Of a stretch of DNA of 64,000 bases, positions 3,608-61,309 are shown piece after piece. How positions within the stretch are numbered: the stretch's first letter is position 1; every line of letters starts with the position of its first letter. The stretch comes from Treponemataceae bacterium (GTDB taxonomy: Bacteria > Spirochaetota > Spirochaetia > Treponematales > Rectinemataceae): the NCBI GenBank assembly GCA_963678065.2, contig CAXXVZ010000004.1:256001-320000 (forward strand), read 5' to 3'. Under the pieces are notes generated by a model. That model made no database searches, was not told the DNA's origin, and was given only the letters and a program-made list of their open reading frames with translations. A program made the position numbers and the translations under genes.

Positions 3608-3650
3608 CCCCGTAGCGCGCTGCGGGGTATGAAACCCGCCTGCGAATCAG
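3608..3650 (-). repeat. Short hairpin repeat (REP/MITE-like), copy 1, most complete
   Basis: Minus strand reads cTGAttcgcaggcgggtttcataccccgcagcgcgctacgggg. It overlaps the corrinoid-protein stop codon and contains a hairpin CCCCGTAGC-GC-GCTGCGGGG. Confidence 0.75.
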
Positions 3651-4282
3651 GCTGCGGCAAAAATGGATGCGACGACTTCGGCCGCGCTCGCGGCATCGGC
3701 CGTATAATAATCGGCTCCGATGGACTGACGGTAGGAGTCGGTGACGGGGGCTCCTCCGATCATGATCTTGATGCTGCCGCGGATCCCGGCTTCATCGGCC
3801 TTCTGGATTATGTTCTTCATCTCGGGCATGGTCGTGGTGAGGAGTGCCGAGCACATGATGATGGACGCGCCCTGCTCTTTCGCGGAGGTGATGAACCTGT
3901 CCGCCGGAACATCGGTGCCGAGATCCACGACCTCGACGCCGCGGCCTTCGACCATCATCCGGACGAGGTTCTTGCCGATGTCGTGGAGGTCGCCCTTGAC
4001 CGTGCCGATGACGACCTTGCCCTTGGCCTTGACACCCTCGGAGACGAGGAAGGGTTTGAGGATGGCCATTCCGCCGTTCATGGCGCGCGCGGCGATGAGG
4101 ACTTCGGGAACGAAGACCTCATTCTTCTTGAACTTCCCGCCGATGACCGTCATGCCGTTCATGAGGGCGTCGAGAATCTCGCCCGCGCCGATCTTTGCGT
4201 CGAGGGCGGACTGGACTCTTTCCTTGGTTTCCTTCAGCTTGCCAGCCTGCAGGAATGTGGAAATCTCTTCGAGTACGGACAT
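3647..4282 (-). CDS. Corrinoid (cobalamin-binding) methyl-carrier protein, MtbC/MttC/MtaC-like
   Basis: Cap domain (EVFVPEVLIAARAM) and B12-binding motif GDLHDIGKN...SALLTTT...IGGAP; 211 aa. Confidence 0.95.
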   Translation of the reverse strand: MSVLEEISTFLQAGKLKETKERVQSALDAKIGAGEILDALMNGMTVIGGKFKKNEVFVPEVLIAARAMNGGMAILKPFLVSEGVKAKGKVVIGTVKGDLHDIGKNLVRMMVEGRGVEVVDLGTDVPADRFITSAKEQGASIIMCSALLTTTMPEMKNIIQKADEAGIRGSIKIMIGGAPVTDSYRQSIGADYYTADAASAAEVVASIFAAA

Positions 4283-4462
4283 GATTGCCTCCCAAATGAC
4301 CTTTCTGACGTTCTTCCGGAGGATGCTTCTGGCAGCATCTCTTTTTTCTTAATAATAATAAATGCGCATTTTCCGGCTGTCTCTCATTTTTTTATGAATT
4401 GCGACAGTCCTATCGTAAAATATTCGTATACCGCGGATTAAAGCCAAAGTATCATCGTGACC

Positions 4463-6353: not shown

Positions 6354-7721
6354 GTGAATCACGAGTCCTTCGCCCCGGACGGACTGTCCGCCGATCCCGC
6401 TCCGAACGAAACCGCAGCTCTCCTGGAAAAGACCGCCCGGACGTATGCCCTGGCGACAAACACACCCTGCCACGCCGTCGACCCCGACGGACGTTTTTTC
6501 GGCTCCGACTCGAAATCCATACGCTGCGGGCTCTGCATGGCGACTGGCCCCTCAGGCTGCGACGACGAGCGCCCCTCCTCATCCTGCGACGAGGTCCTGC
6601 GCTACGGAATTCTTCAGGCGGAACGATTCGGCGGCGCCTATCTCTCTTTCTGCCCGAACAGCCTTCTCATTACCACGGCCGTCGTGCGCAAGGAGGCCGA
6701 AATCGTGGGCGCCCTCATCGCGGGCCCCGCCCTCCTCGTCGACAAGGACGAGCTCATCAGCGAGGAATTCGCGCGGATACACGGAGAGCTCGCCCCGGGA
6801 ATGCCGGGCCTCATGGACCGGCTCGCGACCATGCCGAGCCTCGACACTCTGCGGGCCAAGGCCCTCGCGGACATGCTCGAGGCGGCGGCCAGGGACGCGG
6901 GCGCGGAGCTCGAAGGCCGGGTCGATCCCAGGATCGAGGCCTCGCGCCGGAACGCGCGGATAGCCGAGTACATCCAGAGCCTCAAGGCGGCGGGCCTCGA
7001 CTCCGGCGACGGGGAGGAGAATCTGCGCGGCTATCCCTTCGAGAAAGAGAGGGAACTGGTCGCCTTGGTCGCGCGGGGAGACAAGGCCGGAGCGCGGAAG
7101 GTTCTGAACGAAATTCTCGGCGCGGTGTTTTTCGAGGGAGGAGGCGCCCTGCAGGGCGTTCGAGCGAGGGCTCTCGAACTCGTCGTCCTCCTGTCGCGCG
7201 CCGCGGTGGAAGGAGGGGCGACGGCCCAGGAAGTATTCGGGGCGAGCGAGGACTTCATCAAGCGCACGGCGACGGCGCGGAGCGTCGAGGATCTCGCCTC
7301 CTGGCTCGCCGTCGTGCTCAACCGCTTCACCGACTTCGTCTTCACCCTGAAGAGGGCGAAGCACGCGGACACCATCCGCAAGGCGGAACGCTTCATCAAG
7401 GAGCGCTACCGCGAGGAACTCACGCTGGAGGATGTCGCGAAGGAAGTCGGGCTTTCGCCCTCGTACTTCAGCTCGGTCTTCAAGAACGAAGTCGGGACGG
7501 GCTTCGCCGCCTACCTGAACGAGGTCAGGATCTTCAAGTCGAAGGAGCTGCTCAAGAACCGGGCCATCCCCATCGTCGAGGCGGCGGGCATGGTCGGCTT
7601 CCTCGACCAGAGCTATTTCAGCCGGGTCTTCAAGTCGATAGTCGGGGTGTCGCCGGGCGCCTACCGGAACGGGCGCTTCGCCCCCGACTCCGGGATAGAG
7701 ATACACGGAGAGAACGCATGA
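6354..7721 (+). CDS. AraC-family regulator with PocR ligand-binding domain
   Basis: N-terminal Cys-containing PocR-like sensor (CxxC..C..FCPNSL), YPFEKERELV linker, C-terminal AraC HTH (LSPSYFSSVFK...GFLDQSYFSRVFK). AAGGAG RBS before GTG at 6354. Confidence 0.88.
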   Translation: MNHESFAPDGLSADPAPNETAALLEKTARTYALATNTPCHAVDPDGRFFGSDSKSIRCGLCMATGPSGCDDERPSSSCDEVLRYGILQAERFGGAYLSFCPNSLLITTAVVRKEAEIVGALIAGPALLVDKDELISEEFARIHGELAPGMPGLMDRLATMPSLDTLRAKALADMLEAAARDAGAELEGRVDPRIEASRRNARIAEYIQSLKAAGLDSGDGEENLRGYPFEKERELVALVARGDKAGARKVLNEILGAVFFEGGGALQGVRARALELVVLLSRAAVEGGATAQEVFGASEDFIKRTATARSVEDLASWLAVVLNRFTDFVFTLKRAKHADTIRKAERFIKERYREELTLEDVAKEVGLSPSYFSSVFKNEVGTGFAAYLNEVRIFKSKELLKNRAIPIVEAAGMVGFLDQSYFSRVFKSIVGVSPGAYRNGRFAPDSGIEIHGENA

Positions 7722-8842
7722 GACTGCACATCGTCGGAGGTTTCCTCGGCTCGGGCAAGACGACTGCCATCGCGCGGGCCGCGAAACTTCTGGCCGGGCG
7801 CGGACTGAAGGTCGGAGTCGTCACGAACGACCAGGGCAAGAGCCTCGTCGACACAATCTTCATGGACTCTGCGGGCGCGCCGAGGACGGAGGTGACGGGC
7901 GGATGCTTTTGCTGTCGCTACGAAGATTTCACGGACAGACTCGCCGCCTTCGCCGCAGAGGAGAGGCCCGACTGGATCTTCGCGGAGGCCGTGGGCTCCT
8001 GCGCCGACGTCGTCGCCACCGTCGTGCTGCCCATCGCGCAGGCCATCAGGGGAGCGAGCTTCGGGGCGCTGGGATTCACGGGCGCACCGACTTTTTCCGT
8101 GCTCTGCGACTCCCGCCTGCTGCAGCGCAGGCTCCTCGGCCAGCCCCTGCCCTTCTCGGAGGACCTCACATACCTCTTCGACAAGCAGATCGCCGAGGCT
8201 GGCCTCATCGTCGCGAACAAGTCCGACCTCGTCGCCGACAACCAGGCCTTCCGCACCCTCTTCGAGGAGAAGTTCCCTGGAAGGCCCTGGCGCATGCAGT
8301 CCGCGAAGTCCGACGCGGACATCCTGGGCTGGACGACCGCGCTGGATCAGGCGGGCGCGGAACTCGCCGGCAGGCCCGAGGAGGTCGACTACGAGCGCTA
8401 CGGGCGCGCCGAGGCCGGGCTCGCCTGGGCGGACTCGGAGATCCTCCTCGAATCCGCGCCGGAAAATCCGGGAGTCGAGCTCGGGGCGGCCTTCCGCAGC
8501 CTCTTTCTCGCCCTCGTGGCGCGGGTGAAGAAGGAAATCGGCCCGGCCGGCCACGCGAAGGCCTTCGCGGGCGACGCTCGCGCCGGCGGGAAAATCAGCA
8601 TCGTCTCCGCGGGGACCGACGAAGGCATCAGGATGGAATTGCCCGAGTTCCACGACTCTCTGCCTGTCCTCCTCAACCTCAGGATCGAGGGATCGCCAGA
8701 GCGGCTGGAAGCCGTCATGCGGGCAGGACTCGCGGAGCTCGGCGCAAAGCTCGGGATCGCCGTCACCATCCGCTCGATGAGTGTCTTCAGCCCCTCGCCT
8801 CCCCTGGTGCCGGCGCAGAGGGTCGGGCAAACAAAGGCGTGA
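7718..8842 (+). CDS. CobW/HypB/UreG (G3E) family GTPase metallochaperone
   Basis: GGFLGSGKTT Walker A, GGCFCC metal motif, NKSD guanine motif; ATGA overlap with the upstream regulator. Confidence 0.88.
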   Translation: MRLHIVGGFLGSGKTTAIARAAKLLAGRGLKVGVVTNDQGKSLVDTIFMDSAGAPRTEVTGGCFCCRYEDFTDRLAAFAAEERPDWIFAEAVGSCADVVATVVLPIAQAIRGASFGALGFTGAPTFSVLCDSRLLQRRLLGQPLPFSEDLTYLFDKQIAEAGLIVANKSDLVADNQAFRTLFEEKFPGRPWRMQSAKSDADILGWTTALDQAGAELAGRPEEVDYERYGRAEAGLAWADSEILLESAPENPGVELGAAFRSLFLALVARVKKEIGPAGHAKAFAGDARAGGKISIVSAGTDEGIRMELPEFHDSLPVLLNLRIEGSPERLEAVMRAGLAELGAKLGIAVTIRSMSVFSPSPPLVPAQRVGQTKA

Positions 8843-14742: not shown

Positions 14743-14770
14743 ATCGTCTCCCGTATGAAGATTCATCGGA

Positions 14771-16443: not shown

Positions 16444-16641
16444 GTCCGAATCCTCCTTGGTGCCGTCCTTGGACGGTCCTTCGCGATTGTAGGGGCGCTT
16501 TTCCGAATCCCGGAAGAGACACATTTTTCGCTGCGACAGAATTTGATACTTTCGTGAATTCCCGCCGGAAACGGGCGATTTCGCCGAAACCGGCTTTTCG
16601 GGGCATTGACTCCGGGCGAAAAGCGAATTATAGGCAGCTGC

Positions 16642-18042: not shown

Positions 18043-18109
18043 CGAGGGTGGAGCTGATCAGAGAGGGAGTGATCGGCGGAGTCGGCCTCCCGCCTCGCCC
18101 CTCGCTGGA

Positions 18110-24090: not shown

Positions 24091-25287
24091 TCACCACTGG
24101 GGAGGATAGAAGGTGGCGACGTCCTTGGCGGTGATGATGTGCTGGGGCAGGTTGCGGCGGACCTCGACGGCCAGGCCGTTGAACCAGTCGGAGGCGGTCT
24201 TCACGGCGAGGGCGCCGTCGCCTTCGGCGGTCTGGTAGGTGATGGCGAAGAGCCTTCCGTCCTTGACCTGGTCCATGCCGATCTTGGAGTTGCCGGCGGC
24301 CACGACGACGACGTCCGAGCGTCCGGCCTTCTTGAGGGCCTCGGCGATGCCGAGGGCCTGGGCGGAGTCATCGGCGGCGAAGACGCCCTTCAGCTTGGGA
24401 CCGAAGCGGGTGAGCCAGTCGGAGACGAGCTGCATGGTCTTGTCGGCTTCGAAGCCGGGAGCCTGCTTGTCGAGGGTCTTGATCTCGGGGGCGTAGGTGG
24501 CCAGCTCGGAGATGGGGCCGAAGCAGCGGGCGAAGTAGGGCGAGCCGCCGGGGGCGTGCTGGACGTAGGCGACGCCGATTTCCGCGGCGCCGGGGTTGCG
24601 GCGGCGGAGCTCGTCGGCGAATACCCTGGAGAGGAGGCGCATCTGGCCGAAATCATCCGGGCCGGTCCAGGCGATGGCGTAGTTCATGGCCTCGGCTTCG
24701 GGGAGGGTGTTGAAGAGGATGAGGGGAATGCCGGCCTGGTTGATCTTGCGCGCCTGCTGGGGAGCGGTCTTGGCGTCGAGCGGGATGAGGAGGATCATGT
24801 CGGGCCTCTCGTTGATGGCCTGATCGATCATCTGGTTCTGGACCGCGAGGTCCCAGTTCGGAGAGAGGGCCTTGAAGCTCATCTTGTAGGCGTCGGCGAC
24901 TTTCTTGGCGCCCAGGGTGCAGGCCGTGGTCCAGGGATGGTCGCCGTGGACGATGAAGATCACTTTCTTCCCGATGGCGCCGTCGGCGGGGGACTTGGGA
25001 ATGTTCACTTTCTTGGTGTTCCAGCCGGCCCACTCCATGTCGTACCAGTGCATGGGATCGGTTTCGGGCAGGGAATCGGCGTTGGCGGGACGGACGGGAA
25101 CCTTGCGGTTGTCCGTGGAAGCCTTGAGAAGGGACTGGGTGTCGGCGGCCTTGAGCACGCTCGTGTCGACCTTGAGGGAAGCTGCGAGATTGGCTTTCTG
25201 GGCCGCACTGAGATTCTGCGCGAATCCCGTGGCCGCGACGACCATCATGAGGGCGATGGCGGCGAGGGCGATGAGAGATTTCTTCAT
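24091..25287 (-). CDS. Monosaccharide ABC transporter substrate-binding protein (RbsB-like, CUT2)
   Basis: Signal peptide; QNQMIDQAINERPD, INQAGIPLILFN, GVFAADDSAQALG; AGGAGG RBS. Confidence 0.9.
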   Translation of the reverse strand: MKKSLIALAAIALMMVVAATGFAQNLSAAQKANLAASLKVDTSVLKAADTQSLLKASTDNRKVPVRPANADSLPETDPMHWYDMEWAGWNTKKVNIPKSPADGAIGKKVIFIVHGDHPWTTACTLGAKKVADAYKMSFKALSPNWDLAVQNQMIDQAINERPDMILLIPLDAKTAPQQARKINQAGIPLILFNTLPEAEAMNYAIAWTGPDDFGQMRLLSRVFADELRRRNPGAAEIGVAYVQHAPGGSPYFARCFGPISELATYAPEIKTLDKQAPGFEADKTMQLVSDWLTRFGPKLKGVFAADDSAQALGIAEALKKAGRSDVVVVAAGNSKIGMDQVKDGRLFAITYQTAEGDGALAVKTASDWFNGLAVEVRRNLPQHIITAKDVATFYPPQW

Positions 25288-25416
25288 CCGAATGCCTCCT
25301 GGAAAAGTGATGTTCCTCCCGGTATCACACCCGACGGGCGATCCGGTTATGGAATCCGAACGGTATCGCGGGTCCTGCGGAGAGGTGGATACCCACCCAC
25401 CCGCGAAAATCCGCGT

Positions 25417-26436
25417 TCAGGCCCTCGGCCGCGTCTCCAGCTCCTTCATGAGCTGGGGTCTGCGTCCGAGGGTCCGCTCGTGCTTGTAGAGGACATAGGC
25501 CTCGTAGAGCACGACGAGGGCGAGGATGAGTCCCGCGAAGAATATCTTCACCTCGTTTCCGAGGCCGAAGAGAATGATCCCTGTGTACAGCATTTCGAGA
25601 GAGAGGATGGCCACGACGGTCTTGAGCACGCCGCCCTTGCCCCCCGCCATCGAAGTGCCGCCGATTATGGTCGCGGAGATGACGTACATGAGGGACTGGT
25701 CGCCGAGCTTCAGGGTGGCGGCGCTCGATTCCATCGCGAAGAATATCCCGCCGATCGCGGCCATCGCTCCTGAGAGAACGAAGGCTCCGATCGTGTAGTT
25801 GTCGGTCTTGATGCCGGCGAGCCAGGCTGTGTTCCTGTTTCCTCCGACGAGGTAGAAATTGCGGCCGGTCCGCGTCTTTCGGAGGAATACCTCGGCGAGA
25901 ATCACGAACAGGGCCGTTATGAGCACGCGGGGGGTCACGAGGGGGAGGAGCATCTTCGCGAGGAAGTCCGAGACCGCGAAGGCGTCCTCGGAGGAGAGGC
26001 TCACGGAGTTGCCCCCCGTGAACTGGTAGATGGCGCCCTGGAGAATCGTCATCGTGCCGAGGGTGACGATGAAGGAATTGATTTTCGCCTTGGCCACGAG
26101 AAGGCCATTCACGAGACCGACCAAGGCGCCTGCCGCGATCGCGAGGGGGACAGAGCCGAAGTAGCCGAGTTGCTCCTTCATGCCGAGGCCGATGACGCCC
26201 GCGAAGGTGATGACCGTGCCGATCGAGAGGTCGAGCTGGCCGCAGATCATGACGATCGTGAATCCGATCGCGACGCAGGCGTTCATGCCCACCGAGCGCA
26301 TGATGGTGGTCAGGTTGAATACGTTGAAGAACTTCGGAGCGAAGAGCGACATGAACGCGAAGACCGCGATGAAGAGGATGAAGATCCTGTACTTGTCTCC
26401 CCAGGAGAGGAGTTTGCTTTTGTCTATTTTACGCAT
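25417..26436 (-). CDS. Monosaccharide ABC transporter permease (RbsC-like)
   Basis: GQLDLSIG, INSFIVTLGTM, GGNRNTAWLAGI, IIGGTSMAGGKG. Confidence 0.93.
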   Translation of the reverse strand: MRKIDKSKLLSWGDKYRIFILFIAVFAFMSLFAPKFFNVFNLTTIMRSVGMNACVAIGFTIVMICGQLDLSIGTVITFAGVIGLGMKEQLGYFGSVPLAIAAGALVGLVNGLLVAKAKINSFIVTLGTMTILQGAIYQFTGGNSVSLSSEDAFAVSDFLAKMLLPLVTPRVLITALFVILAEVFLRKTRTGRNFYLVGGNRNTAWLAGIKTDNYTIGAFVLSGAMAAIGGIFFAMESSAATLKLGDQSLMYVISATIIGGTSMAGGKGGVLKTVVAILSLEMLYTGIILFGLGNEVKIFFAGLILALVVLYEAYVLYKHERTLGRRPQLMKELETRPRA

Positions 26437-27580
26437 CGTCGCGCCCCAGGCTTCGCAAGGATTTGGCATTGATTCCGACGACGATGATGAAGATGGCGCC
26501 GCGTATCATGTCCTGTGAGAATGTCCCGATACCGAGAAGGGTCATGATGTTGTTCATCATGCCGATGACGAGGGCGCCGCCGAGGACGCCTACGATGGAG
26601 CCGCGGCCGCCCGCGAGGGTCATGCCGCCGATGACGATGGCGGTGACCGCCTTGAAGTCGTAGCCAGCGCCGTTGTACCAGGCTCCGACGCGTCCGAGCG
26701 AGGTCACCGTGAGTCCGCCTATCGTCGCCGCGAAGGCGGAGATGACGAAGGCCGCGCCTATGATCCTCTCGACGTTGATGCCCGAATATTTGGCCGTCCG
26801 TTTGGCCGAGCCCGTCAGCTTGAGGCGCGCGCCGAAGACGGTCTTTCCGAGCACGAATTGTCCCGCGACGACCATGGCGACGAGCATGATGACGGGGAGA
26901 CCGACGATGTCGAATAACCTGTAGCGGAAAATGCCGTCGAACATCCTGTTGGTCCACTCGCTCGCGCCCGTCATGTCGGGGTAGATCTGCTTGTTGACCC
27001 AGACGAGGCGGATTACGCCCATGGTCACGTAGTTCATCGCGAGGGTCCAGATGATGGGGTTCGCGCCGAACTTGCCTACGACGAGGCCGTTCACGAGACC
27101 GATGAAGAGGCCGACCGCGAGGGCGAGGGCTATGGCGGGCCAGAAGCCGTATTTCAGCATCTGGATGCAGACGATGCCGGTGAGGGCCATCGTCGTCGGG
27201 ACGGACATGTCGGAGAAGTTGCCCGAATACGTGACGAAGGCGATGCCGACGGCGACGATGCCGAGCATGGCCACTGCGTCGACGATGTTCATCATGTTCT
27301 GTGCGGACAGGAATCCCCGGATAACGCCCGTCGCCTGGAGAACACCGCCCAGCGCGAGGAAGAGGATCGCGATGCCGTATATGCCGGCCGTGCTGACGAT
27401 CCTTCCCATGCGGTTCGAACCCGTGGAGCGCAGATCCACTGCGCCCGGGGCCGCCGCGCCGGCCGGCGCGGCCTTCGCCTTTGCCGGCGCGGCCTTTGTC
27501 TTCGCCTTTGCCGGCGCGGCCTTTGTCTTCGCCTTCGCCGCCCTGCCCCGCGAGGCACCAGAGGAGGTTTTTGCAGCCAT
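26429..27580 (-). CDS. Monosaccharide ABC transporter permease with Ala/Lys-rich repetitive N-terminal tail
   Basis: AKYSGINV, AIVIGGMTLAGGRGS; ATG at 27580 coupled to the ATPase stop. Confidence 0.9.
   Translation of the reverse strand: MAAKTSSGASRGRAAKAKTKAAPAKAKTKAAPAKAKAAPAGAAAPGAVDLRSTGSNRMGRIVSTAGIYGIAILFLALGGVLQATGVIRGFLSAQNMMNIVDAVAMLGIVAVGIAFVTYSGNFSDMSVPTTMALTGIVCIQMLKYGFWPAIALALAVGLFIGLVNGLVVGKFGANPIIWTLAMNYVTMGVIRLVWVNKQIYPDMTGASEWTNRMFDGIFRYRLFDIVGLPVIMLVAMVVAGQFVLGKTVFGARLKLTGSAKRTAKYSGINVERIIGAAFVISAFAATIGGLTVTSLGRVGAWYNGAGYDFKAVTAIVIGGMTLAGGRGSIVGVLGGALVIGMMNNIMTLLGIGTFSQDMIRGAIFIIVVGINAKSLRSLGRDDA
27462..27535. repeat. 27-bp in-frame tandem repeat (2 perfect copies plus partials)
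   Basis: TTCGCCTTTGCCGGCGCGGCCTTTGTC at 27474-27500 and 27501-27527; encodes AKAKTKAAP repeats. Confidence 0.9.
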
Positions 27581-29085
27581 CACCTGCCCCCTTCGCCGTT
27601 GGCCGCGAGCAGAACCGATTCCTCGGAGCACTCTTCGTACTTCATCTCGCGGGTGAACCTTCCGTTGCACATGATCATGACCCTGTCGGAGAGGCCGACG
27701 AGTTCGGGCAGATCCGAAGAGATGAGGATGACCGAGGTTCCGGCCCGCGCGAGCTTTTCGATCGACTGGTGGATGATCATCTTGGCGCCGATGTCGACGC
27801 CGCGGGTCGGTTCGTCCAGAATGAGAACCTTGGGTGAACTCGCGAGCCACTTCGCGAGGAGTACCTTCTGCTGGTTGCCGCCCGAGAGGTTGCCGACGGT
27901 CCGCGAAGGATCGGGCGGGTAGATGGCGAGTTCCTTTATGAGCGAGTCGACCGTGGTCCCACCCGCGCGCTTCGAGTAGACGGAGAATTTCGAGAGGCGG
28001 TGGATAATGGGCGAAAGAATGTTGTCGTCGACGGCGAGCCTGAGGGCGAGCCCTTCGACCTTGCGGTCCTCGGTAAGGTAGGCGATGCCCTCGTCGACGC
28101 GCGAGGCCATCGAGCGGCCTTTTACCCGCTTTCCATCCAGCTCGACCGCGCCTTCGTCGGCCCGGTCGAGGCCGACGAGTACGCGGGCCAGCTCCGAGCG
28201 GCCGGCTCCCGACAGGCCGCAGATACCCATGATTTCGCCGCGCCTGACCTCGAAGCTGACATCGTGGAAGAAGCCGTAGCGCGTCAGCTTCGCGACCTTG
28301 AAGCGGGATGGACCGATGGCGCGCTTGTCGCGGTTGTAGAATTCCTTGACAGAGCGGCCGACCATCATCTGGACGATCTCTTCCCGCGTGACTTCGACGA
28401 TCTCCTTCGTGGCTACCTTCTTTCCGTCGCGCATCACCGTGACGCGGTCGGCTATCCTGAAGATCTCCGGAAGATGGTGCGAAATGAAAACGATGGCGAG
28501 ACCCCGCTTCCTGAGAGTGTCGATGATTCCGAATAACCTCTCGACTTCCTCGCGGGAGAGCGCGCTCGTGGGTTCGTCCATGACGAGAATGCAGGGTTTC
28601 GTTCCGAGGACCTTCGCGATTTCGACGAGCTGGGCCTCGTGCTGGCTGATGTCCTCTATGGGAAGTCCCGGGTCGAGTTCGAGGCCGACCGAAGCGAGGA
28701 GACGTCTGGCCTCGGCATCGGCGGCCGCGCGGTCGAGAAGCCCGCGTTTTTTCGGAAGCCTGCCTGCGAGAAGATTCTCAGTGATGCTGATGGGCCTCGC
28801 GAGACTCAGCTCCTGGTAGATCATTCCGATGCCGTATTTTCGGGCCTCGGAGGGAGAGTGCAGGAGAACCTTCTTGTCGTTGATGAAGATGTCTCCGGTG
28901 TAGTCGTCGAATGATCCGGCGAGCATCTTCATGAGGGTCGATTTGCCCGCCCCGTTTTCCCCGACGAGGGCGTGCACTTCGCCCGCGTAAACCTGGAAGG
29001 TGACGTTGTCGACGGCTATCGTTCCCGGATAGCGTTTGCCGACTCCTTTCATCTCCAGCGCGACCCCTATCTCGTGTTCGCTCAC
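27580..29085 (-). CDS. Sugar ABC transporter ATP-binding protein (RbsA-like, two ABC domains)
   Basis: GENGAGKSTL, LVMDEPT, LSGGNQQKV, ILDEPTRGVDIG; GTG at 29085 overlaps the upstream TGA. Confidence 0.95.
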   Translation of the reverse strand: MSEHEIGVALEMKGVGKRYPGTIAVDNVTFQVYAGEVHALVGENGAGKSTLMKMLAGSFDDYTGDIFINDKKVLLHSPSEARKYGIGMIYQELSLARPISITENLLAGRLPKKRGLLDRAAADAEARRLLASVGLELDPGLPIEDISQHEAQLVEIAKVLGTKPCILVMDEPTSALSREEVERLFGIIDTLRKRGLAIVFISHHLPEIFRIADRVTVMRDGKKVATKEIVEVTREEIVQMMVGRSVKEFYNRDKRAIGPSRFKVAKLTRYGFFHDVSFEVRRGEIMGICGLSGAGRSELARVLVGLDRADEGAVELDGKRVKGRSMASRVDEGIAYLTEDRKVEGLALRLAVDDNILSPIIHRLSKFSVYSKRAGGTTVDSLIKELAIYPPDPSRTVGNLSGGNQQKVLLAKWLASSPKVLILDEPTRGVDIGAKMIIHQSIEKLARAGTSVILISSDLPELVGLSDRVMIMCNGRFTREMKYEECSEESVLLAANGEGGR

Positions 29086-30329
29086 TTCGCGCTCCCGTTG
29101 AATTGTGCGATCGCATCGTACATCGCGATGATGTTGGCGGGCGGGACATCGGGCAGGATGTTGTGGACCGTGTTGAACACGAATCCGCCGCCGGCCGAGA
29201 ATATTTCGAGCCTGCGCTTCACCTGCTCCGCGACCTGCGCGGGTGAGCCTGAATTGAGCACCTCGCGCGTGTCGACGCCGCCGCCCCAGAAACAGATATC
29301 TTTCCCGAATTCTTTTTTGAGTTTTTCCGGCCCCATGTCCTTCGCGTTCGTCTGGACCGGATTGAGAATGTCGTAGCCCACATCGATGAGGTCGGGCATG
29401 AGGCTGTAGAGCGATCCGCATGAATGAAGGAAGGTCTTCATGGAGCTGTGCTTCTTCACGTAGGCCACGAGTTCGGCGTGACGGGGCTTGAAGAGGCTCC
29501 GGTAGGTATCCGGGTTCATGAAGGGCCCCCCGTCGTGGCCGAGATCGTCCCCGAAGCGGATGATGTCGGCCACGTCGCCGACGGCCTCGCAGACCTTCTC
29601 CAGAGTCGCGAGGTGGCTCTCCATGAGGGCGTCCAGAAGCCGACCGACCTCTTCGGGCTCGCACAGGAGGTCCATGAGGAAATTGTCGATGCGCCGGAGG
29701 AAGGTCCCCCACTCGAAGAGGTTGCAGCCGGCGACGATCACGAGGGCGCGGTCGGACTTCGCCTTGAGCGCGAGCGCACGGGCGCGGAGATCCGCCCAGA
29801 AGTCATCGGCGGCGGCGTGATTCCAGGGCGAGTGCACGAGGGCGGACCAGAGAACCGCGCCCATCGCCTCTGGCAGGCCGGAATACTCGGCGGGATAGCC
29901 TTCCAGGTATGGAAAGCAGCGCTGGTCGTAGAAGGTCGCGCCCGCAGGCCGCTCGGCGATGAGCCGGCCAGAGCGATCGCAGGCGTAGAAGGAATCGCCG
30001 CGCCGCACCGGCTTGAACCAGGCCGGGTACTGCACCTTCCAGCCGCCGGGAAGCTCGATGTCGCTCCAGTCCGAGGGACTTTCGTCGAAGGCGCGCCCTA
30101 TGTCGACCACATCCACGCCGAAGCGGCCTAAGGCCCAGTCGTCGGGCTGGGCGAGTTCCTGCACGACGTCGTAGACTTTCACGGGCAGGTCGGAGTGTCC
30201 CAACTCGGCCGCGAGGCGCGAATAGGCGATCGCCGAGATGCCGGAGCTCGGCGTGGCTCCGAGGTCGACCGGAACTTTGTCCGGCTCCCGGTGCTCCACG
30301 GCCGAGAGGATGCGTTCGCGGGAAGTCAT
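29082..30329 (-). CDS. Uroporphyrinogen decarboxylase-fold (MtaA/CmuA-like) corrinoid methyltransferase
   Basis: MTSRERI..EPDKVPVDLG, FGDDLG, HSCG, LNPVQ, FWGGGVDT, FVFNTVHNI. Confidence 0.85.
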   Translation of the reverse strand: MTSRERILSAVEHREPDKVPVDLGATPSSGISAIAYSRLAAELGHSDLPVKVYDVVQELAQPDDWALGRFGVDVVDIGRAFDESPSDWSDIELPGGWKVQYPAWFKPVRRGDSFYACDRSGRLIAERPAGATFYDQRCFPYLEGYPAEYSGLPEAMGAVLWSALVHSPWNHAAADDFWADLRARALALKAKSDRALVIVAGCNLFEWGTFLRRIDNFLMDLLCEPEEVGRLLDALMESHLATLEKVCEAVGDVADIIRFGDDLGHDGGPFMNPDTYRSLFKPRHAELVAYVKKHSSMKTFLHSCGSLYSLMPDLIDVGYDILNPVQTNAKDMGPEKLKKEFGKDICFWGGGVDTREVLNSGSPAQVAEQVKRRLEIFSAGGGFVFNTVHNILPDVPPANIIAMYDAIAQFNGSAK

Positions 30330-31612
30330 CAGGCTTTGCCCACCTGGCCGGCATCGACGACATCACCGGCGGCGCCCGATGCATCGCCGGACGGACCGCC
30401 CGCGGCGAAGGCCCCGCGCCCGGCCGATTTTCCGGCGCGGAACAGGTCCATCTCGGGCATGTCGTACTCGCCGAGCTCGAGAGGATATTTTCCGTATTTC
30501 TTCACGAGATCGACGACGAAGCCGTAGCGCTCGGCCGAGACATTGCTCGGCACCGAGTGGTCGGACTGCACGATGTAGCCGCCGCCCTTGGCCGCGTTGA
30601 GCTTTCGCATAACCTGGGCTTTCAGCTCGTCCAGGGAGGCGTTCGCCCAGGCGAGAGCGTCGATATTGCCGCAGAAACCCATCTCGTGGCCGTACTGCTT
30701 GCGGATTTCGACGACATCGAGGCCGGACTTGGCCTCCAGGGGATTGTAGGCGTCGAGGCCTATCTCGATGAAATCGTCGTAGATCATAGTCGCGTTGCCG
30801 CAGCCGTGGTAGATGACGGGGATGCCTGCATCGTGGCAGACTCTGATCTGCTCCTTCACGATGGGCTTGAAATGCTCGCGCCAGAATACCGGCGAAAAGA
30901 GCATGCCGTTGCGGTAGGCCACGTCGCCCCAGATGACCATGCCGTCGAGCATGCCGTCCGCGGCCTTTATCTGGGCCTTCGTCATCTCGGCGAGGAAGCT
31001 GCCGACCCTCTCTATGAAGGCGCCCAGCTCATCGGGATACAGGCCCATCCACATGAAGGTGTTCTCGCTGCCGATGATGCGCCAGAGCTGCTCGTGACCC
31101 TCGCAGATCGAGCCGTAGACGGGGAAATCGGGATGAATGCTCTTGACGGTGTCGATCCAGGCGGGGGAATTGCGGGTGATGACGTCGCCCACGCCGGCGA
31201 GCTGGTTGTCGCCGGCACAGAAGTAGCGCCTGTCGTCCCAGGGATCGTCGAACTGGAAGGCCTCCATCTTCTCGATCGAGTCCGTGCCGAAGGACTCGAA
31301 GTAGGGCATCTGCGTGCCGAGCTTCTTGCGGATGACGGCCTCGTACCCGGTCCTGAGGATGATGTCGTCCTCGTGCTCGGAGAGGATTTCGAAGGGTTTG
31401 ATGTGCGGGTCCATGTTCGGGGTCGTGGATACCCAGTCGAGGTCGTAGTAGCGGTAGACGTCCACGTCGTCCGCGAGCCCGAGCTCCTTTCTCCATCGCT
31501 GGATGAAGGTCGTCCAGAAAAAATCGCTCACGGGAACCCTGTCCGCCTCTTCGTGGCGCAGGGTCGCGTTCATCCTTTCGAGCTTCTGCAGGCACTTCTC
31601 GGTTCTCTTCAT
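30329..31612 (-). CDS. Uroporphyrinogen decarboxylase-fold methyltransferase-like protein
   Basis: EADRVP, WGDVAY, YHGCGN, YNPLEAK, GNID, GGYIVQSDHSVP. Confidence 0.85.
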   Translation of the reverse strand: MKRTEKCLQKLERMNATLRHEEADRVPVSDFFWTTFIQRWRKELGLADDVDVYRYYDLDWVSTTPNMDPHIKPFEILSEHEDDIILRTGYEAVIRKKLGTQMPYFESFGTDSIEKMEAFQFDDPWDDRRYFCAGDNQLAGVGDVITRNSPAWIDTVKSIHPDFPVYGSICEGHEQLWRIIGSENTFMWMGLYPDELGAFIERVGSFLAEMTKAQIKAADGMLDGMVIWGDVAYRNGMLFSPVFWREHFKPIVKEQIRVCHDAGIPVIYHGCGNATMIYDDFIEIGLDAYNPLEAKSGLDVVEIRKQYGHEMGFCGNIDALAWANASLDELKAQVMRKLNAAKGGGYIVQSDHSVPSNVSAERYGFVVDLVKKYGKYPLELGEYDMPEMDLFRAGKSAGRGAFAAGGPSGDASGAAGDVVDAGQVGKA

Positions 31613-31670
31613 CGCGTTTCGTCCTTATTCTTCGCCATTCTTCGCCGCACGCGCGTTCATCCCCGCGCGC

Positions 31671-31994
31671 TCAGTCCTGGTGAAAGACTTCTTCCATGGT
31701 GGACCACCATTCGCCCTCGGCCCTGTTCGCGACAGGCTCCTGCATCGGCATCATGATGTCCCACCATTCCTGTGTTTTTTTGTCGGCGGCCATTCTGGCC
31801 ATATCGGCGGCGAAATCGCTGCCCGTGTACTCGAAATACGCGAAGAGCGTGCCGTCTTTGTGGTATATGGAATAATTTTTGATATTGCAGGCGCTGATCA
31901 TGGCGGCGACCTCGGGCCACACCGAAGCGTGAAATTTCTTGTATTTCTCCAGTACACCGGGCTTTATACCAATTATCTGACCGTAGCGAACCAT
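31671..31994 (-). CDS. rhaM: L-rhamnose mutarotase family protein
   Basis: YKKFHASVWPEV..IKNYSIY..LFAYFEY..TQEWW..MEEVFHQD; GGAGG RBS before ATG at 31994. Confidence 0.85.
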   Translation of the reverse strand: MVRYGQIIGIKPGVLEKYKKFHASVWPEVAAMISACNIKNYSIYHKDGTLFAYFEYTGSDFAADMARMAADKKTQEWWDIMMPMQEPVANRAEGEWWSTMEEVFHQD

Positions 31995-32026
31995 GGCGAC
32001 CTCCGCGGACTCGGCATCTATAGAAA

Positions 32027-32112
32027 ATGCTAACACGTTTTTCCAATCTGTCAAGCAAATTTAGTAAAATAGTGCTTGACAAATCAGCAGTATTGATAAA
32101 ATAATTTATCAA
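32027..32112. promoter_or_regulatory. Divergent sigma70 promoters and operator-like palindrome
   Basis: Inverted TGTCAAGCA/TGCTTGACA gives TTGACA on both strands. Minus strand TTGACA-16-TAGCAT; plus strand TTGACA followed by TGaTAAAAT. Palindrome TTGATAAA-N4-TTTATCAA at 32093-32112. Confidence 0.6.
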
Positions 32113-32132
32113 CCATTCATGAGGGAGTCGGA

Positions 32133-33239
32133 ATGAAAGTCACACTGCGCGATGTCGCGCTCGCGGCCGGGGTGTCCATGACAGCCGCGTCCATGGCCCT
32201 GTGCGAGACCGGAAGGCTCTCCGAAGAGACCAGGGAGAAGGTCAGAAGCGCCGCCCGCGAACTTGGGTACAAGACCAAATCTCTCGCTCCTCTCAGGATG
32301 GAGGAGGGTCCCGCCGTCGGAATCCTCATGAGCATCGACATCGAGTGGGCTTTCATATTCCACTTCATCCGTCCGATCATCGAGGAAATCGGCTCGACCC
32401 TCGCCGGCCACGGACTCACGACGATTCTCATTCCCATCTCGCGGCGCGACAATGCCGACGATATCTACACGAAAATCCAGAAATCCCGCTCCATCGCCGT
32501 CGCGGCCCTCCACTACGGGAACGAAACCCTCTTCGAGAAGCTCGAAAACGCAGGAACACCCGTCGTTCTCATCATGAACAGCAACTTCCAGGACCGCTTT
32601 TACTCAGTCTGCGTCGACGACTACCAGGGTGCCTACGAGGGCACCTGCAGGCTCATCCGGCGGGGTCACAGGACCATCGGGTACCTCGAATGCGTCAGGC
32701 AGGATCTGCCCCAGCTCCTCGTCGACCGGTTTTTCGGCTTCCGCAAGGCCGTAGAGGAATACGGACTCGACTTCGACGATTCCCTGAAGGCGCGGGTCGA
32801 GCCCGAGGACATGTCCGGCCTCGCCCAGAGACTCGAGCGCATGCTCGCCGACAATCCCGGCCTCACCGGCATCTTCGCTCTCGACGACGATCTCGCCCTG
32901 CGGATCGTCGTCGCCCTGTCCATGATAGGCAAGCGCGTTCCGTCCGACCTCTCGCTCATCGCCCCCGGAGACGTCCTCGACTACGAGCTTCCGCACGTTC
33001 CCCGCATAAGCACCATGCGCATCGACACGGCCTACATGGGGAAAATAGCCGCCCAGATGGTCCTCAACAGAATCCAGCACAATCCGCAGGAACTGCACGT
33101 GCTCAAGGTCAAGCAGCAGCTCGTGCGCCGCGGCTCGGTCGCGACGGGACCGGCCGGCCTCTCTCCTGGAGAGGAGACGGAAAATATCGATGCGATCCGT
33201 CAAATTTATCCTGTTGAGCGCTCGGGGATACGGGTCTAG
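32133..33239 (+). CDS. LacI-family transcriptional regulator
   Basis: VTLRDVALAAGVSMTAASMAL..LSEETREKV..ELGY; GHRTIGY; periplasmic-binding-fold C-terminus. Confidence 0.95.
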   Translation: MKVTLRDVALAAGVSMTAASMALCETGRLSEETREKVRSAARELGYKTKSLAPLRMEEGPAVGILMSIDIEWAFIFHFIRPIIEEIGSTLAGHGLTTILIPISRRDNADDIYTKIQKSRSIAVAALHYGNETLFEKLENAGTPVVLIMNSNFQDRFYSVCVDDYQGAYEGTCRLIRRGHRTIGYLECVRQDLPQLLVDRFFGFRKAVEEYGLDFDDSLKARVEPEDMSGLAQRLERMLADNPGLTGIFALDDDLALRIVVALSMIGKRVPSDLSLIAPGDVLDYELPHVPRISTMRIDTAYMGKIAAQMVLNRIQHNPQELHVLKVKQQLVRRGSVATGPAGLSPGEETENIDAIRQIYPVERSGIRV

Positions 33240-33316
33240 ACTAGGTACAGAGGGCTCCGCCGGAAGGACTCGGGCCCGCCCCGCACGCCCTACCGGAAGC
33301 CCGCAAGGAGACAGTC

Positions 33317-34615
33317 ATGCTGCACGATCCGGGAAGTTATTCGCCTCCTCTCGTCATCGATTCCATCGAACTGGACGCCGATGAAAAGGATGTCCTGAAG
33401 CGGCTCGGCGCGGAAATCGCAGGAATCGCCGACCTGCCCGTCCACGCCGAAAAGGCTGGGCTGTGGCGAAAGCTGAACGATCTCGATCCAGAAAGACCGA
33501 TGGTCTGGATCAACGAGATCCCCTGGCACGAGATGAATGTCGGCGACGAGCTCAGCCTGCGCTGCCGTGATCCCTGGGCCCGCGAGCTCGAGACGCGTCT
33601 CAGGAGGACGATCTACCAGTGGAAGCACATGCCGGCGGACATGATCGTCAATCCCTGGCTGGACTGCCCGCTCGCTGTACACTCCACGGACTTCGGCATC
33701 ATCGAAGATGTCGATATCGTCAGGACGGACTCAGGAAACGACATCTACTCGCGCCACTTCAACATTCAGATCCGGGAACCCGAAGACATAGAAAAAATAC
33801 GGATGCCGGTGGTGACTCACCAGGAAAAGACGACGGAAGTCAGCTTCGCGGTCATGCGGGAACTCTTCGCCGGCATCATCGACGTAAAAAAGGTCGGCCA
33901 GACCCACATCTGGTTCACTCCCTGGGACTACCTCATCAGGTGGTGGGGGATAGAGGAGGCCATGATGGACCTCGTCATGAGGCCCGAGATGGTTCACGCC
34001 GCGGTGGACCGCATGGTCGACGCGTGGATGAGGGAGCTGGATCAGTTCGAGGCGCAGAATCTCCTCTCGCTCGACTGCGACAACACGCGGATCGGCTCGG
34101 GCGGTTACGGCTATGTATCCGCCCTGCCGGGAGAGGATTTCAATCCCGCCCACGTGAGGCCGCGCAACATGTGGGGATGCTCCAACGCGCAGATATTCTC
34201 GAGCGTGTCGCCCGAAATGCACTGGGAGTTCGCCGTCGAGCACGATCTTCGCTGGCTCGCCCGCTGGGGCTTGACGTATTATGGCTGCTGCGAGCCGCTG
34301 GACCGGAAGGTCGACATTCTCAGGCGCATCCCGAATCTGCGAAAAGTGTCCGTGAGCCCCTGGAATGACCTTCCGCGGATGCTCGGGGCGATAGGCGGCG
34401 ACTACGTGGCCTCGGTCAAGCCGACCCCAGCCTGCTTCCTGGACGAGGGCTGGAATCCCGGGGCGGTGACGAAAAATCTCGCCGATACTGTCGAGCTCGC
34501 CTCGCGCACGGGGACGCCTGTCGAGTTCATCATGAAGGACATCAGCACGGTGCGCTACCATCCGGAGCGCCTGTGGCGGTGGTCAGAGCTCGCCATGAAG
34601 GCGGTCGGGGCCTGA
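33317..34615 (+). CDS. Uncharacterised protein, probable distant URO-D/methyltransferase TIM-barrel
   Basis: EIPWHE N-terminal motif; WGIEEAMMDLVMRPEMVH and VSPEMHWEF resemble URO-D helices; YYGCCEPL metal-ligand-like motif. Confidence 0.6.
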   Translation: MLHDPGSYSPPLVIDSIELDADEKDVLKRLGAEIAGIADLPVHAEKAGLWRKLNDLDPERPMVWINEIPWHEMNVGDELSLRCRDPWARELETRLRRTIYQWKHMPADMIVNPWLDCPLAVHSTDFGIIEDVDIVRTDSGNDIYSRHFNIQIREPEDIEKIRMPVVTHQEKTTEVSFAVMRELFAGIIDVKKVGQTHIWFTPWDYLIRWWGIEEAMMDLVMRPEMVHAAVDRMVDAWMRELDQFEAQNLLSLDCDNTRIGSGGYGYVSALPGEDFNPAHVRPRNMWGCSNAQIFSSVSPEMHWEFAVEHDLRWLARWGLTYYGCCEPLDRKVDILRRIPNLRKVSVSPWNDLPRMLGAIGGDYVASVKPTPACFLDEGWNPGAVTKNLADTVELASRTGTPVEFIMKDISTVRYHPERLWRWSELAMKAVGA

Positions 34616-34794
34616 AGTCGACTCTTCATCGGGCCGACCGGGCCACAGCGGGCAGTGGCGCGAGTGCCGCCAGGAAGGCCTCATCATGGCGGCCGGCCGT
34701 GACAGCTCCGGGAGGCCCGGTGTATAGTCGGCCGTAGCTCCCGGACCGCAGGGCGGCGATCGGCGGCGGCAGACCGGGATCGGAGGCATTCGGC

Positions 34795-35379
34795 ATGCTC
34801 ACTCTGACGATGACGGCGGGCGGACTCGCGGGCTTTGTCCTCATGTTCGCCTTCGACTGGATGACGACGAACAAGACAGGCAGATCGAGGGGGTTCGTCG
34901 GCCTCGCGGGCCTGTCTCTCCTCGTCGCGTCGACGCTCGCCCTCCTCGCGGTCACCGTCGACGCGCAGAGAATGCTGTCGGCGCCGGGAATCGCCTTCAC
35001 GACCCTCGGCCTGGCCTTCTTCGGACTGCTCGCCTACTCTCTCTTCTTCGAGCTGCCGAAGGAAACCTACGCGGGAGAGGACCCGCGCCACCTCGTCGTC
35101 GATACGGGGACATGGGCCCTGTGCAGGCATCCGGGTCTTCTCTGGTTCGCGCTGGGTTACGCCTCTCTCGCTCTCGCGGCGAGGTCTTTCCCCTTCTCGG
35201 TCGCGGCCATCGTCTGGACTGTCGCCGACATCGTGTATGTCATCCTTCAGGAGCGGTTCTTTTTCCGGAAAATCTTCGCCGACTACGAGCGCTACGCCGC
35301 GACTACGCCGATGCTCATCCCGAACCGGGCGAGCGTCGAAAAATGCCTCGCCACGATCGGGAGGAAGTCCCGCCCATGA
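34795..35379 (+). CDS. Integral membrane SAM-dependent methyltransferase (ICMT/PEMT family)
   Basis: Several TM helices; LVVDTGTWALCRHPG and QE..F...YERY..TTPMLIP family motifs. Confidence 0.75.
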   Translation: MLTLTMTAGGLAGFVLMFAFDWMTTNKTGRSRGFVGLAGLSLLVASTLALLAVTVDAQRMLSAPGIAFTTLGLAFFGLLAYSLFFELPKETYAGEDPRHLVVDTGTWALCRHPGLLWFALGYASLALAARSFPFSVAAIVWTVADIVYVILQERFFFRKIFADYERYAATTPMLIPNRASVEKCLATIGRKSRP

Positions 35380-35413
35380 ACCGTGACTCTATCGCTTGCA
35401 TCTCCGGTATCGC

Positions 35414-36178
35414 TTACACCTCCGGGCGCAGGGTCAGGACTCTGTCGTTGTCGTATGCCGGATCGATCACGTAGCCGGGCGGCACATGGAGAAATTCATT
35501 TTCGTCGACGCCGCCTGCGAGGAGGGCCCCGAGGAGGCGCATCGATCCGGGGATGAGGACAAACTCCTTTCCTTCGTCCGCCGCCCTCTGCCGCATCTCG
35601 TCCGCGTGTCCGAGTCCCGAGGTTTCGGGGATTTCGATGTAGCGGAGCTCGGTTTCGTGGAGTTCCGGATGGAGGGTCTCCCACACGTAGGCCGCGTTCT
35701 CCTCTCCGTATTTTTCGACGAGTTCGGCGTACTCGAGGCCTATACCCGTCGTCTGCCCGAGGATAGAGCTCCGGAGATAGGTGGAACCGCGCTCGATGTA
35801 GCCTGAGGAGGTCCAGGAGGCGCTGGGATTGTCCCCGAAGCGGGCGAGGAACTCGGTCTTCGAGCCGAGAAGGACGGTGCAGCAATCGTGGGCGCGCGGG
35901 ATGATGAGGGGGATCTTCCGGGCCGCGATGCCGGAAAGGCCATTGCCGCAGAGCCCGTAACCGAGGAGGATGGCGTCGTAGCCCCTCCCCCCCCGAAGCG
36001 CACCTTCTCCACCGGAGGCGGCGTCGATCCGCGCCTGGAGTGCTTCGCGCAGAGTCGAGGGACTCTCGTGGAGTCCGAGTTCCAGAAACTCGGGATCGAC
36101 GATGGCGTGCGTGCGGGACAAAAGTATACACAGTTCACGCTGGAATACGTTGCAGGCTATGAGTTTGTATTTTTTCAT
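35414..36178 (-). CDS. DUF1638-domain protein
   Basis: LIACNVF..LELGLHESP..YDAILLGYGLCGNG..PRAHDCCTVLLGS..YGEENA motifs. Confidence 0.88.
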   Translation of the reverse strand: MKKYKLIACNVFQRELCILLSRTHAIVDPEFLELGLHESPSTLREALQARIDAASGGEGALRGGRGYDAILLGYGLCGNGLSGIAARKIPLIIPRAHDCCTVLLGSKTEFLARFGDNPSASWTSSGYIERGSTYLRSSILGQTTGIGLEYAELVEKYGEENAAYVWETLHPELHETELRYIEIPETSGLGHADEMRQRAADEGKEFVLIPGSMRLLGALLAGGVDENEFLHVPPGYVIDPAYDNDRVLTLRPEV

Positions 36179-44239: not shown

Positions 44240-44279
44240 AAGGTTGCGTGCCGATGACGGCGGAAGGAGCAGGAAATAT

Positions 44280-60865: not shown

Positions 60866-61309
60866 CTAGCGGTTTTTCGCCACAGGAATCACACCCTTTT
60901 TCAGGATGATGTTTCCGTATTTGACTGTCTCGCCCGTCATGACGACAGCGAAGGCCGCTTTCGTCCTCTCGTAGAAGGCGAAGCGCTCCAGCCGGGCGAT
61001 GGCCGGCGCCTCGGGCCAGTGCCTGTCTATCGCGGCGCGGTAGGCTCTCTCGACGTCAGGATCGAGCCCGTCTCCGGGAACGGGCGCCATCATCACGAGG
61101 GGAGCGTCGGAGTAGGAATCCGGATTCATGAGGGCGAAGATACCGTCGAGAAGCTCGGGGATCCGGATGCCGTCGGCCCTTATGACGCGGGCGTTGCAGC
61201 TGTCTCCGGGAAAAAACGCGTCGGCGAGGACTATCTCGTCGCCGTGGCCCATCCGGGCGAGCACCGAGAGAAGTTCAGGGGAAATGCAGGGCGCTATTCC
61301 GATCAGCAT
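60866..61309 (-). CDS. fucU: L-fucose mutarotase (RbsD/FucU family)
   Basis: [55 protein letters not shown]. Confidence 0.93.

Follow-up and report, generated by a model that had tools for sequence, protein, structure and literature searches.

The 64,000-nucleotide stretch analyzed here (the window; positions 256,001 to 320,000 of contig CAXXVZ010000004.1, assembly GCA_963678065.2 of a Treponemataceae bacterium) contains a sugar-import operon associated with three proteins of the URO-D/MtaA fold, which we term UroA, UroB and UroC. With a probability of roughly 0.65, we propose that this operon and its partners carry out the corrinoid-dependent O-demethylation of O-methyl-L-fucose, with the sugar being fermented and the methyl group being oxidized or passed to methionine. 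That some methylated sugar would be demethylated by corrinoid-dependent chemistry, whatever its identity, appears more probable still. The support for a demethylase is genomic and structural, coming from gene neighborhoods, conserved residues and modeled folds, and the system itself is conserved and real. The host genome comprises 5.27 Mb in 5 contigs (99.94% complete, 6.7% contaminated), and the window lies on contig 4. The named proteins most similar to those encoded here belong to spirochetes, consistent with such a host.

The operon occupies the minus strand in the order mutarotase (31671..31991), UroA (30329..31612), UroB (29082..30329), sugar ABC ATPase (27580..29085), permease 1 (26429..27580), permease 2 (25417..26436) and sugar-binding protein (24091..25287). 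The junctions from UroA to permease 2, as read from the sequence, overlap by 1, 4, 1 and 8 bases, and gaps of 58 and 129 bases respectively separate the mutarotase from UroA and permease 2 from the binding protein. On the plus strand a divergently transcribed LacI-family gene is followed by UroC (33317..34615) and a PEMT-like gene, with a DUF1638 gene convergent to them. A corrinoid protein and the activator RACo are encoded 18–20 kb from the operon, and FucI and FucU 21–25 kb away. Every gene named in the initial annotation lies where it had been put and on the same strand, and the overlapping junctions and the divergent and convergent layout are likewise borne out. UroA was found in 10 of the 61 genomes of relatives searched, the host genome included. 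The operon has the same gene order in 7 of the 9 other carriers, with one locus truncated by a contig end and UroA and UroB swapped in one, and hence the arrangement is beyond chance. Orthologs of UroA that adjoin fucose genes are known from Spirochaetota, Acidobacteriota and Planctomycetota, so that the neighborhood conservation on which the original proposal depended extends across three phyla.

The URO-D barrel is recovered in UroA both by Pfam (URO-D, 2.2e-22) and by a structure model (predicted local distance difference test, pLDDT, 88.6), in UroB by Pfam (URO-D, 1.1e-21), and in UroC by a model (pLDDT 86.1). The UroA model matches URO-D structures with Z-scores of 27.6–28.9 and MtaA with 26.7, the next fold scoring 16.6. 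MtaA (PDB 4AY7/4AY8) shares the barrel of UroA (root-mean-square deviation 3.2 over 313 residues, 14–16% identity) and has a His-x-Cys motif at the aligned position. UroC is far more divergent: Pfam and NCBIfam scans gave nothing, a PDB sequence search was without match, and profile comparison with UroA found nothing (probability 0.5%). Its assignment to a divergent version of the fold is based on the structure model, for which the top Foldseek matches are URO-D and MtaA (TM-scores of 0.4–0.5), and on the Atlas, which groups it with URO-D clusters at 0.97–0.98. At least 4,931 relatives of UroC were recovered among 8,000 candidates scored, one of which, from the cultured Anaerohalosphaera lusitana, is 67% identical.

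Each of the three families has its own set of invariant residues: D230, H269, C271 and H352 in UroA (38 aligned sequences), D262, H302, C304 and H389 in UroB (21 sequences), and Y322-G-C324-C325-E326 together with K407-D408 in UroC (59 sequences). The His-x-Cys zinc ligands that had been suggested as a diagnostic feature are therefore found in UroA and UroB, but in UroC the corresponding feature is Gly-Cys-Cys-Glu. The His-x-Cys motif and the distal Asp and His of UroA and UroB are likely to form a metal site, which might be suited to activating an ether oxygen. The zinc ligands of MtaA and CmuA presumably comprise His-x-Cys and a distal Cys. In an alignment of 53 URO-D-fold proteins, comprising host-genome paralogs and locus proteins only, the distal position is Cys in the MtaA-like group and His in UroA and UroB, and thus neither these two nor UroC display the MtaA/CmuA ligand set. 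Membership in that family is ruled out by its profile as well (TIGR01463: 27.6 and 45.6 bits for UroA and UroB, cut-off 235; no match for UroC). The same is true of HemE, as the initial annotation had anticipated: TIGR01464 gives 23.0 and 24.5 bits for UroA and UroB against a cut-off of 303 and no match for UroC, and all three lack a match to the arginine-rich N-terminal pattern that we take to be the substrate motif of HemE. No protein of the host genome exceeds the HemE cut-off, the best match reaching 100 bits. In the tree of the URO-D-fold proteins UroB groups with proteins encoded beside a corrinoid protein, DUF1638 and RACo in Acidobacteriota. Characterized methyltransferases I are found within the UroD superfamily (PMC13222342, PMC10418091), and zinc is reported to be dispensable in some of them (PMC13222342). 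UroA, UroB and UroC are accordingly likely, judging from sequence and modeled structure, to be corrinoid-dependent methyltransferases I.

The host genome encodes at least 38 URO-D-fold paralogs, two of which lie just beyond the ends of the window (C4:252012 and C4:320837). There is also a fourth URO-D family (e.g. L009:11179-12222), members of which are encoded near UroA or UroC in about 18 of the 89 loci; it is missing from the window locus, and its nearest host copy is at C2:337837 (33%).

The prospective methyl carrier is a stand-alone corrinoid protein (3647..4282, minus strand) with B12-binding cap and binding domains and an invariant D98-x-H100-x-x-G103, the cobalt-binding His motif; it is one of two such proteins in the host genome. 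It is adjacent to RACo, the ATP-dependent corrinoid reductive activator (4457..6325, plus strand; Pfam Fer2, Raco_middle and RACo_C_ter), behind which lie genes for a PocR-type AraC regulator and a CobW-like GTPase (6354..8842, plus strand; Pfam), both of which also adjoin RACo in relatives. As RACo is present in a single copy and neighbors the operon in relatives, the corrinoid protein and RACo about 20 kb away belong with the operon, and the link postulated by the initial annotation holds. RACo is present in 36 of 39 UroA genomes. Among the relatives it occurs in 10 of 10 UroA carriers as against 9 of 51 non-carriers, and in 6 of these 10 it lies no more than 25 kb from UroA; in a sample of an acidobacterial class, centered on a genome that itself carries UroA, it occurs in 4 of 4 carriers as against 49 of 147 non-carriers. 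It was also found in all 5 planctomycetes tested, out of 9.

Gene neighborhoods provide a more direct connection. A stretch of about 35 kb in one relative (G213) encodes the corrinoid protein, EtfA, EtfB, MetF, a pterin-binding transferase, PocR-AraC, RACo, DUF1638 and CobW, and continues with UroC, LacI and then the operon. A second relative (G194) has an uninterrupted series of LacI, UroC, DUF1638, a URO-D protein, RACo, PocR-AraC and the transferase, and in L034 a B12-binding gene directly precedes UroA. Of five acidobacterial RACo regions fetched, four combine the sister group of UroB with a corrinoid protein, DUF1638 and RACo, along with a homocysteine methyltransferase in three and MtaB in one; the fifth is an acetyl-CoA synthase cluster. 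The DUF1638 protein of the window (35414..36178, minus strand; Pfam DUF1638) is single-copy in the host genome and is encoded within three genes of RACo in 7 related loci. DUF1638 proteins are reported to share fitness and distribution patterns with a RamA-like reactivator (PMC5764234), and it is likely that this protein is a partner in corrinoid reactivation.

Judging from the acidobacterial module (L071, L072, L073 and L075), in which a URO-D protein and a corrinoid protein are encoded with DUF1638, RACo and either a stand-alone homocysteine methyltransferase or MtaB, methyl groups may go straight to methionine in these soil and peat bacteria. In the window, the segment between the corrinoid genes and the operon (8925-20452) encodes an AraC regulator, an oligosaccharide ABC importer, two esterases and a GH3 glycosidase.

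Candidates for the downstream steps are scattered in the host genome. A cluster on contig 4 (C4:68964-74218) encodes a transferase with a Pterin_bind domain (C4:68964-69986), MetF, EtfB and EtfA, together with a second PocR-AraC; the transferase also occurs with RACo in G213. Fhs, FolD, MetH and CobS are encoded elsewhere. An acetyl-CoA synthase was not found in the host genome, suggesting that the organism is not an acetogen, and methyl-tetrahydrofolate is likely to be oxidized to formate with a gain of ATP or used for methionine. A 2-O-methyl group blocks fucose isomerase, and demethylation would therefore have to precede the isomerase step.

The nature of the sugar is suggested by several lines of evidence, one of which is the first gene of the operon. 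It encodes a RhaM-fold protein (Pfam rhaM, 1.6e-34) whose best PDB match is the L-fucose mutarotase 7BYU/7BYW (E 1.2e-32, residues 2-106), whereas the rhamnose mutarotases in PDB match at E 1e-7 or weaker and the L-rhamnose mutarotase profile TIGR02625 gives 47.9 bits, short of its cut-off of 99.6. Thus, by sequence it is closest to the fucose type, and its earlier designation as a rhamnose mutarotase has to be revised. Such a mutarotase accompanies UroA in 22 of 39 loci of the genome scan, 9 of the next 12 fetched and 8 of 9 planctomycete loci. Fucose markers were counted in the 24 non-spirochaete UroA loci of at least 11 kb, five non-spirochaete loci below 6 kb and the spirochaete-type loci being omitted. 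Glycoside hydrolase family 29 (GH29) occurs in 9 of these as against 0.6 expected from genome-wide GH29 counts, a contrast inflated by kinship and by the clustering of carbohydrate genes; a GH29 or GH95-like gene occurs in 15 of the 24 and any fucose marker in 17. The GH95-like neighbors were considered as candidate GH139 enzymes, and this was ruled out. In metagenomes, where many of the UroC loci are short, a GH29-like gene lies near UroC in 19 of 80 (some of the matches being only 24–32% identical), while the mutarotase is encoded nearby in 20 of them and a transporter of the RhaT family in 7; the sole UroC paralog of the host genome overlaps a GH29 gene.

A link to a methylated sugar comes from a planctomycete operon (G548) with the order mutarotase, GH139, RhaT-family transporter and UroA. 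GH139 enzyme BT0984 is a 2-O-methyl-L-fucosidase that frees beta-2-O-methyl-fucose, and 9HYQ is one of two PDB entries of that study (PMC12282258). The G548 protein matches 9HYQ at E 1.5e-250; we take this entry to be BT0984 because residue numbers agree with an offset of one. As we read the alignment, the G548 protein retains, of the residues named in PMC12282258, the catalytic Glu, both members of the Gln-Asn pair and all but one of the three Trp that make up the triad. GH139 is found in 9 of 60 carrier genomes, compared with 2 of the 151 genomes sampled from Acidobacteriota. A general link to pectic rhamnogalacturonan II was considered but is not supported, GH139 having been found in few carrier genomes and not in the host. 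The window itself encodes, near one end, the L-fucose isomerase FucI (57352..59133, minus strand; NF008220, 1077 bits, cut-off 775; single copy) and a FucU-type L-fucose mutarotase (60866..61309, minus strand; NF011949, 184.8 bits, cut-off 141). The genome-level presence of FucI versus RhaA, tried as a discriminator between fucose and rhamnose, does not separate the two, since RhaA is likewise widespread in the family (26 of 36). Taken together, these contexts point to a fucose-like sugar, for which we infer the methyl group and its position from the enzymes.

Several associated loci might extend this theme. A second locus of the host genome (L066, C2:333692-344439) encodes a GH29 fucosidase, the UroC paralog (45%), two more URO-D proteins, an oligosaccharide-type ABC importer and a GHL6/fucosidase-like hydrolase, and may handle methylated fucosyl oligosaccharides. 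In L025, L027, L028 and L064 UroA adjoins a RuBisCO-like protein and a kinase related to OiaX and OiaK of apionate catabolism, with both matches below their cut-offs, as well as a racemase-like gene and a GH127-like hydrolase; the latter, in L025, was rejected as an aceric acid hydrolase (87 bits, cut-off 950) and has 5OPJ as its best PDB match. The binding protein of the window shares about 40% identity with a sugar-binding domain that is fused to an AraC domain in L008 (5279-7003) and L070 (13144-14823), the fusion being a recurrent neighbor of these loci. Adjoining fucI in the window (52565-57133) is a sugar-acid catabolic operon that encodes a nickel-pincer isomerase (group 22, above its cut-off), a DUF1537 kinase, a PdxA-like dehydrogenase and an Fe-S aldo-keto reductase.

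These observations lead us to propose the following pathway. The methylated sugar would release LacI from its operator and be imported by the ABC system, with the mutarotase setting the anomer. UroA, UroB and UroC would probably differ in specificity, each acting on its own methyl position or on a closely related sugar. A metal bound by the Asp/His/Cys/His set is predicted to activate the ether oxygen, so that Co(I) of the corrinoid protein could take up the methyl group, and RACo, aided by DUF1638 and CobW, would restore oxidized cobalt to Co(I). The pterin-binding methyltransferase might then methylate tetrahydrofolate, from which the methyl group would either be oxidized to formate by FolD, Fhs and MetF (the last acting with EtfAB) or be used by MetH to make methionine. 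The L-fucose set free would enter the FucI reaction.

A number of points weigh against this proposal. On the enzymatic side, identity to characterized methyltransferases is very low (the 14–16% to MtaA in structure alignments), and HemE structures match the UroA model equally well or better. The transferase on contig 4 gives 189 bits with NF005719, below the cut-off of 259, and no fuculokinase could be firmly identified in the host genome. With at least 38 URO-D-fold paralogs in that genome, the co-occurrence with RACo may partly reflect a methyl-scavenging lifestyle. On the side of the sugar, apart from the inflated GH29 contrast, 7 of the 24 UroA loci are without any fucose marker, and among the 9 relatives a single one has a fucosidase in the fetched stretch. 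Enzymes of GH29 and GH95 are reported to be inactive on 2-O-methyl-fucose (PMC12282258), and these neighbors consequently speak for a fucose context and not for the methyl group. GH139 itself is restricted to just 9 of the 60 carrier genomes and was not found in the host genome or in the 8 carrier relatives searched. FucI is widespread in the family regardless (25 of 36) and was found in just 24 of 51 carrier genomes. Finally, rhamnose genes lie near the locus both in the host genome and in G202.

This last point bears on the possibility that the same corrinoid chemistry serves another main substrate, whether O-methyl-L-rhamnose, L-galactose in a methylated form or a fragment of the methyl-xylosyl-fucose kind. 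An L-rhamnose isomerase and a RhaD-like aldolase are encoded about 10 kb to the left of the window; RhaA lies 9 kb from UroA in G202 and is present in 10 of 10 carriers among the relatives; and RhaT-family transporters flank UroA in 4 loci. The GH95-like neighbors are distant members (best E 1e-22) of a family that includes L-galactosidases (PMC12282258), and pectin is known to yield a 2-O-methyl-xylosyl-fucose disaccharide (PMC10154630). Nevertheless, the mutarotase resembles the fucose enzymes, GH29 is the prevailing glycosidase family around UroA and UroC, no rhamnosidase was seen among the Pfam matches of the scanned neighbors, and RhaA, common as it is in the family, was unmatched in the 89 UroA/UroC loci. 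We thus regard a different main sugar as unlikely. Of the methylated sugars originally suggested as substrates, namely those based on rhamnose, fucose and xylose, the fucose type is favored, rhamnose is retained as a secondary candidate, and xylose finds no support here.

Another possibility is that the URO-D-fold proteins act on a fucose derivative without cobalamin, as metal-dependent hydrolases, lyases or decarboxylases or by MetE-like methyl transfer to a thiol, with the RACo link being a by-product of lifestyle. The fold also serves HemE, MetE and a subunit of acetophenone carboxylase, and the third ligand is His and not the Cys of the MtaA-like group. Furthermore, most acidobacterial loci are without a corrinoid gene within 10 kb, and RACo was not found in 3 of the 39 carrier genomes, including one assembled to 7.2 Mb. 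What makes such a scenario improbable is that RACo is present in every carrier of two unselected samples over backgrounds of 18% and 33%, is linked to UroA in 6 of 10 carriers, and stands in G213 within a contiguous set of methyl-transfer genes, and that the nearest kin of UroB are encoded in the midst of genes for corrinoid protein, DUF1638 and RACo. The direction of the reaction must also be considered. Corrinoid methyl transfers are reversible in principle, MtaA as the closest solved methyltransferase removes the methyl group from the corrinoid, and a PEMT-like methyltransferase is encoded behind UroC; the system might thus run in reverse and methylate imported fucose, with methyl-tetrahydrofolate as the donor and surface glycans or methyl disposal as the purpose. 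This we consider very improbable, as importers, fucosidases, a mutarotase and a repressor constitute a catabolic layout, no glycosyltransferase or nucleotide-sugar gene was detected among the Pfam matches of the neighbors, and the PEMT-like gene is not conserved.

As a demethylation pathway for O-methyl-L-fucose, the system would resemble the aryl methyl ether O-demethylases (OdmB, VdmB, MtvB and MtoB) and the chloromethane system CdmBCA, in which a methyltransferase I of the UroD superfamily works alongside three partners, namely a corrinoid protein, its activator and another methyltransferase (PMC13222342). The host genome encodes counterparts of the first enzyme, the corrinoid protein and the activator, and a candidate for the second transferase that scores below its family cut-off. 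Whereas the substrates of the four-component systems are methoxylated aromatics or haloalkanes, sugar import and the fucose context predict an alkyl methyl ether of a sugar here, and whereas MtaA unloads the corrinoid, the UroA-type enzymes are predicted to load it. In the type 1 mlp clusters of non-methanogens, too, more than one member of the UroD superfamily is encoded together with a corrinoid protein and Ram/RACE, and a role in methyl-sulfur or methyl-selenium metabolism has been proposed for them (Kountz and Balskus, PMC10418091). These clusters are defined by at least two Mlps more than 25% identical to MtaA-type enzymes (SCMT), co-directional with carrier and activator and within 2 kb (PMC10418091). 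The window locus does not belong to this type: identity to MtaA is 14–16%, and the carrier and activator are at least 18 kb away. The words "sugar", "carbohydrate" and "DUF1638" are absent from the main text of PMC10418091.

The literature searched, which leaves out most subscription papers, yielded no corrinoid-dependent sugar demethylase. The one sugar demethylase that it yielded, P450ZoGa, removes the blocking O-methyl group of 6-O-methyl-D-galactose and thereby enables its catabolism (PMC6292453). P450ZoGa is an oxygen-dependent monooxygenase acting on a different sugar, whereas the system described here is predicted to be oxygen-free and to keep the methyl group on a carrier. BT0984 in turn would supply a natural candidate substrate, a GH139 ortholog sharing the G548 operon with UroA, but it releases the sugar without demethylating it, and the string "demethyl" does not occur in the main text of PMC12282258. 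O-methyl groups block sugar catabolism, and the literature searched offers no enzyme for the fate, in anoxic habitats, of the methylated fucose of pectin and other glycans. If the proposal is correct, sugar ethers join aromatics, amines, methanol and halides as substrates of the corrinoid methyltransferases; large families such as UroC, which has no Pfam model, acquire a role; and the retention of corrinoid carriers and activators by Acidobacteriota and Planctomycetota is explained.

More speculatively, UroA, UroB, UroC and the fourth family might constitute a toolkit of position-specific, B12-dependent sugar O-demethylases that achieves the oxygen-free uncapping of methylated fucose in three phyla, with the other 35 or so paralogs being largely demethylases for other methylated sugars that share one activator and two carriers. 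We advance this only tentatively and think it somewhat doubtful in its full extent; were it true, non-acetogenic fermenters would be able to harvest both sugar and one-carbon units from the methylated glycans of anoxic waters, peat and sediments.

The LacI-family regulator (32133..33239, plus strand; Pfam LacI and Peripla_BP_3) is divergent from the operon and takes the same divergent position in 6 of 9 relatives. A promoter-like element on the minus strand (32027..32070), with a -35 box at 32049-32054 and a -10 box at 32027-32032, has a predicted function in transcribing the operon, and its boxes are aligned in 10 of 13 upstream regions compared. An A/T-rich near-palindrome immediately upstream of them is a candidate LacI operator. 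A 752-amino acid protein in L006 (2858-5116) shows a fusion of LacI to a C-terminal URO-D domain, and similarly long LacI frames are seen in L005, L008, L087 and L092; such a repressor may sense the methylated substrate or the corrinoid protein. The PEMT-like membrane protein (34795..35379, plus strand; Pfam 20.4 bits, under the cut-off of 25) had been listed by the initial annotation as a membrane methyltransferase encoded behind UroC. It is without a match in any of the related loci examined and is probably a passenger.

The importer is of the monosaccharide CUT2 type. Its ATPase (minus strand, as are all four components) contains two ABC_tran domains (Pfam) and begins with a GTG codon that overlaps the stop codon of UroB; permeases 1 and 2 match BPD_transp_2 (3.5e-32 and 1.3e-32), the start of the second overlapping the stop of the first. 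The CUT2-type binding protein matches Peripla_BP_4 (2.7e-33), and all its PDB matches are distant (best E 2e-20). Permease 1 has an Ala/Lys-rich repeated N-terminal extension encoded by short tandem repeats at 27448-27540. Lake-water RNA contigs from 4 libraries of one study overlap parts of the 24–36 kb region and little of its flanks; they were retrieved using the window stretch, give no strand and may include DNA, and are excluded from the evidence.

Elsewhere in the window, a region of low GC content (38001-48000; 0.47–0.50 as against about 0.62) encodes a DDE transposase and PAS, HD and GGDEF-EAL proteins, and is probably an acquired island. Near the left end (281-3451) a seven-helix histidine kinase displays an unusual fusion to a C-terminal GNAT/FeeM-like domain.

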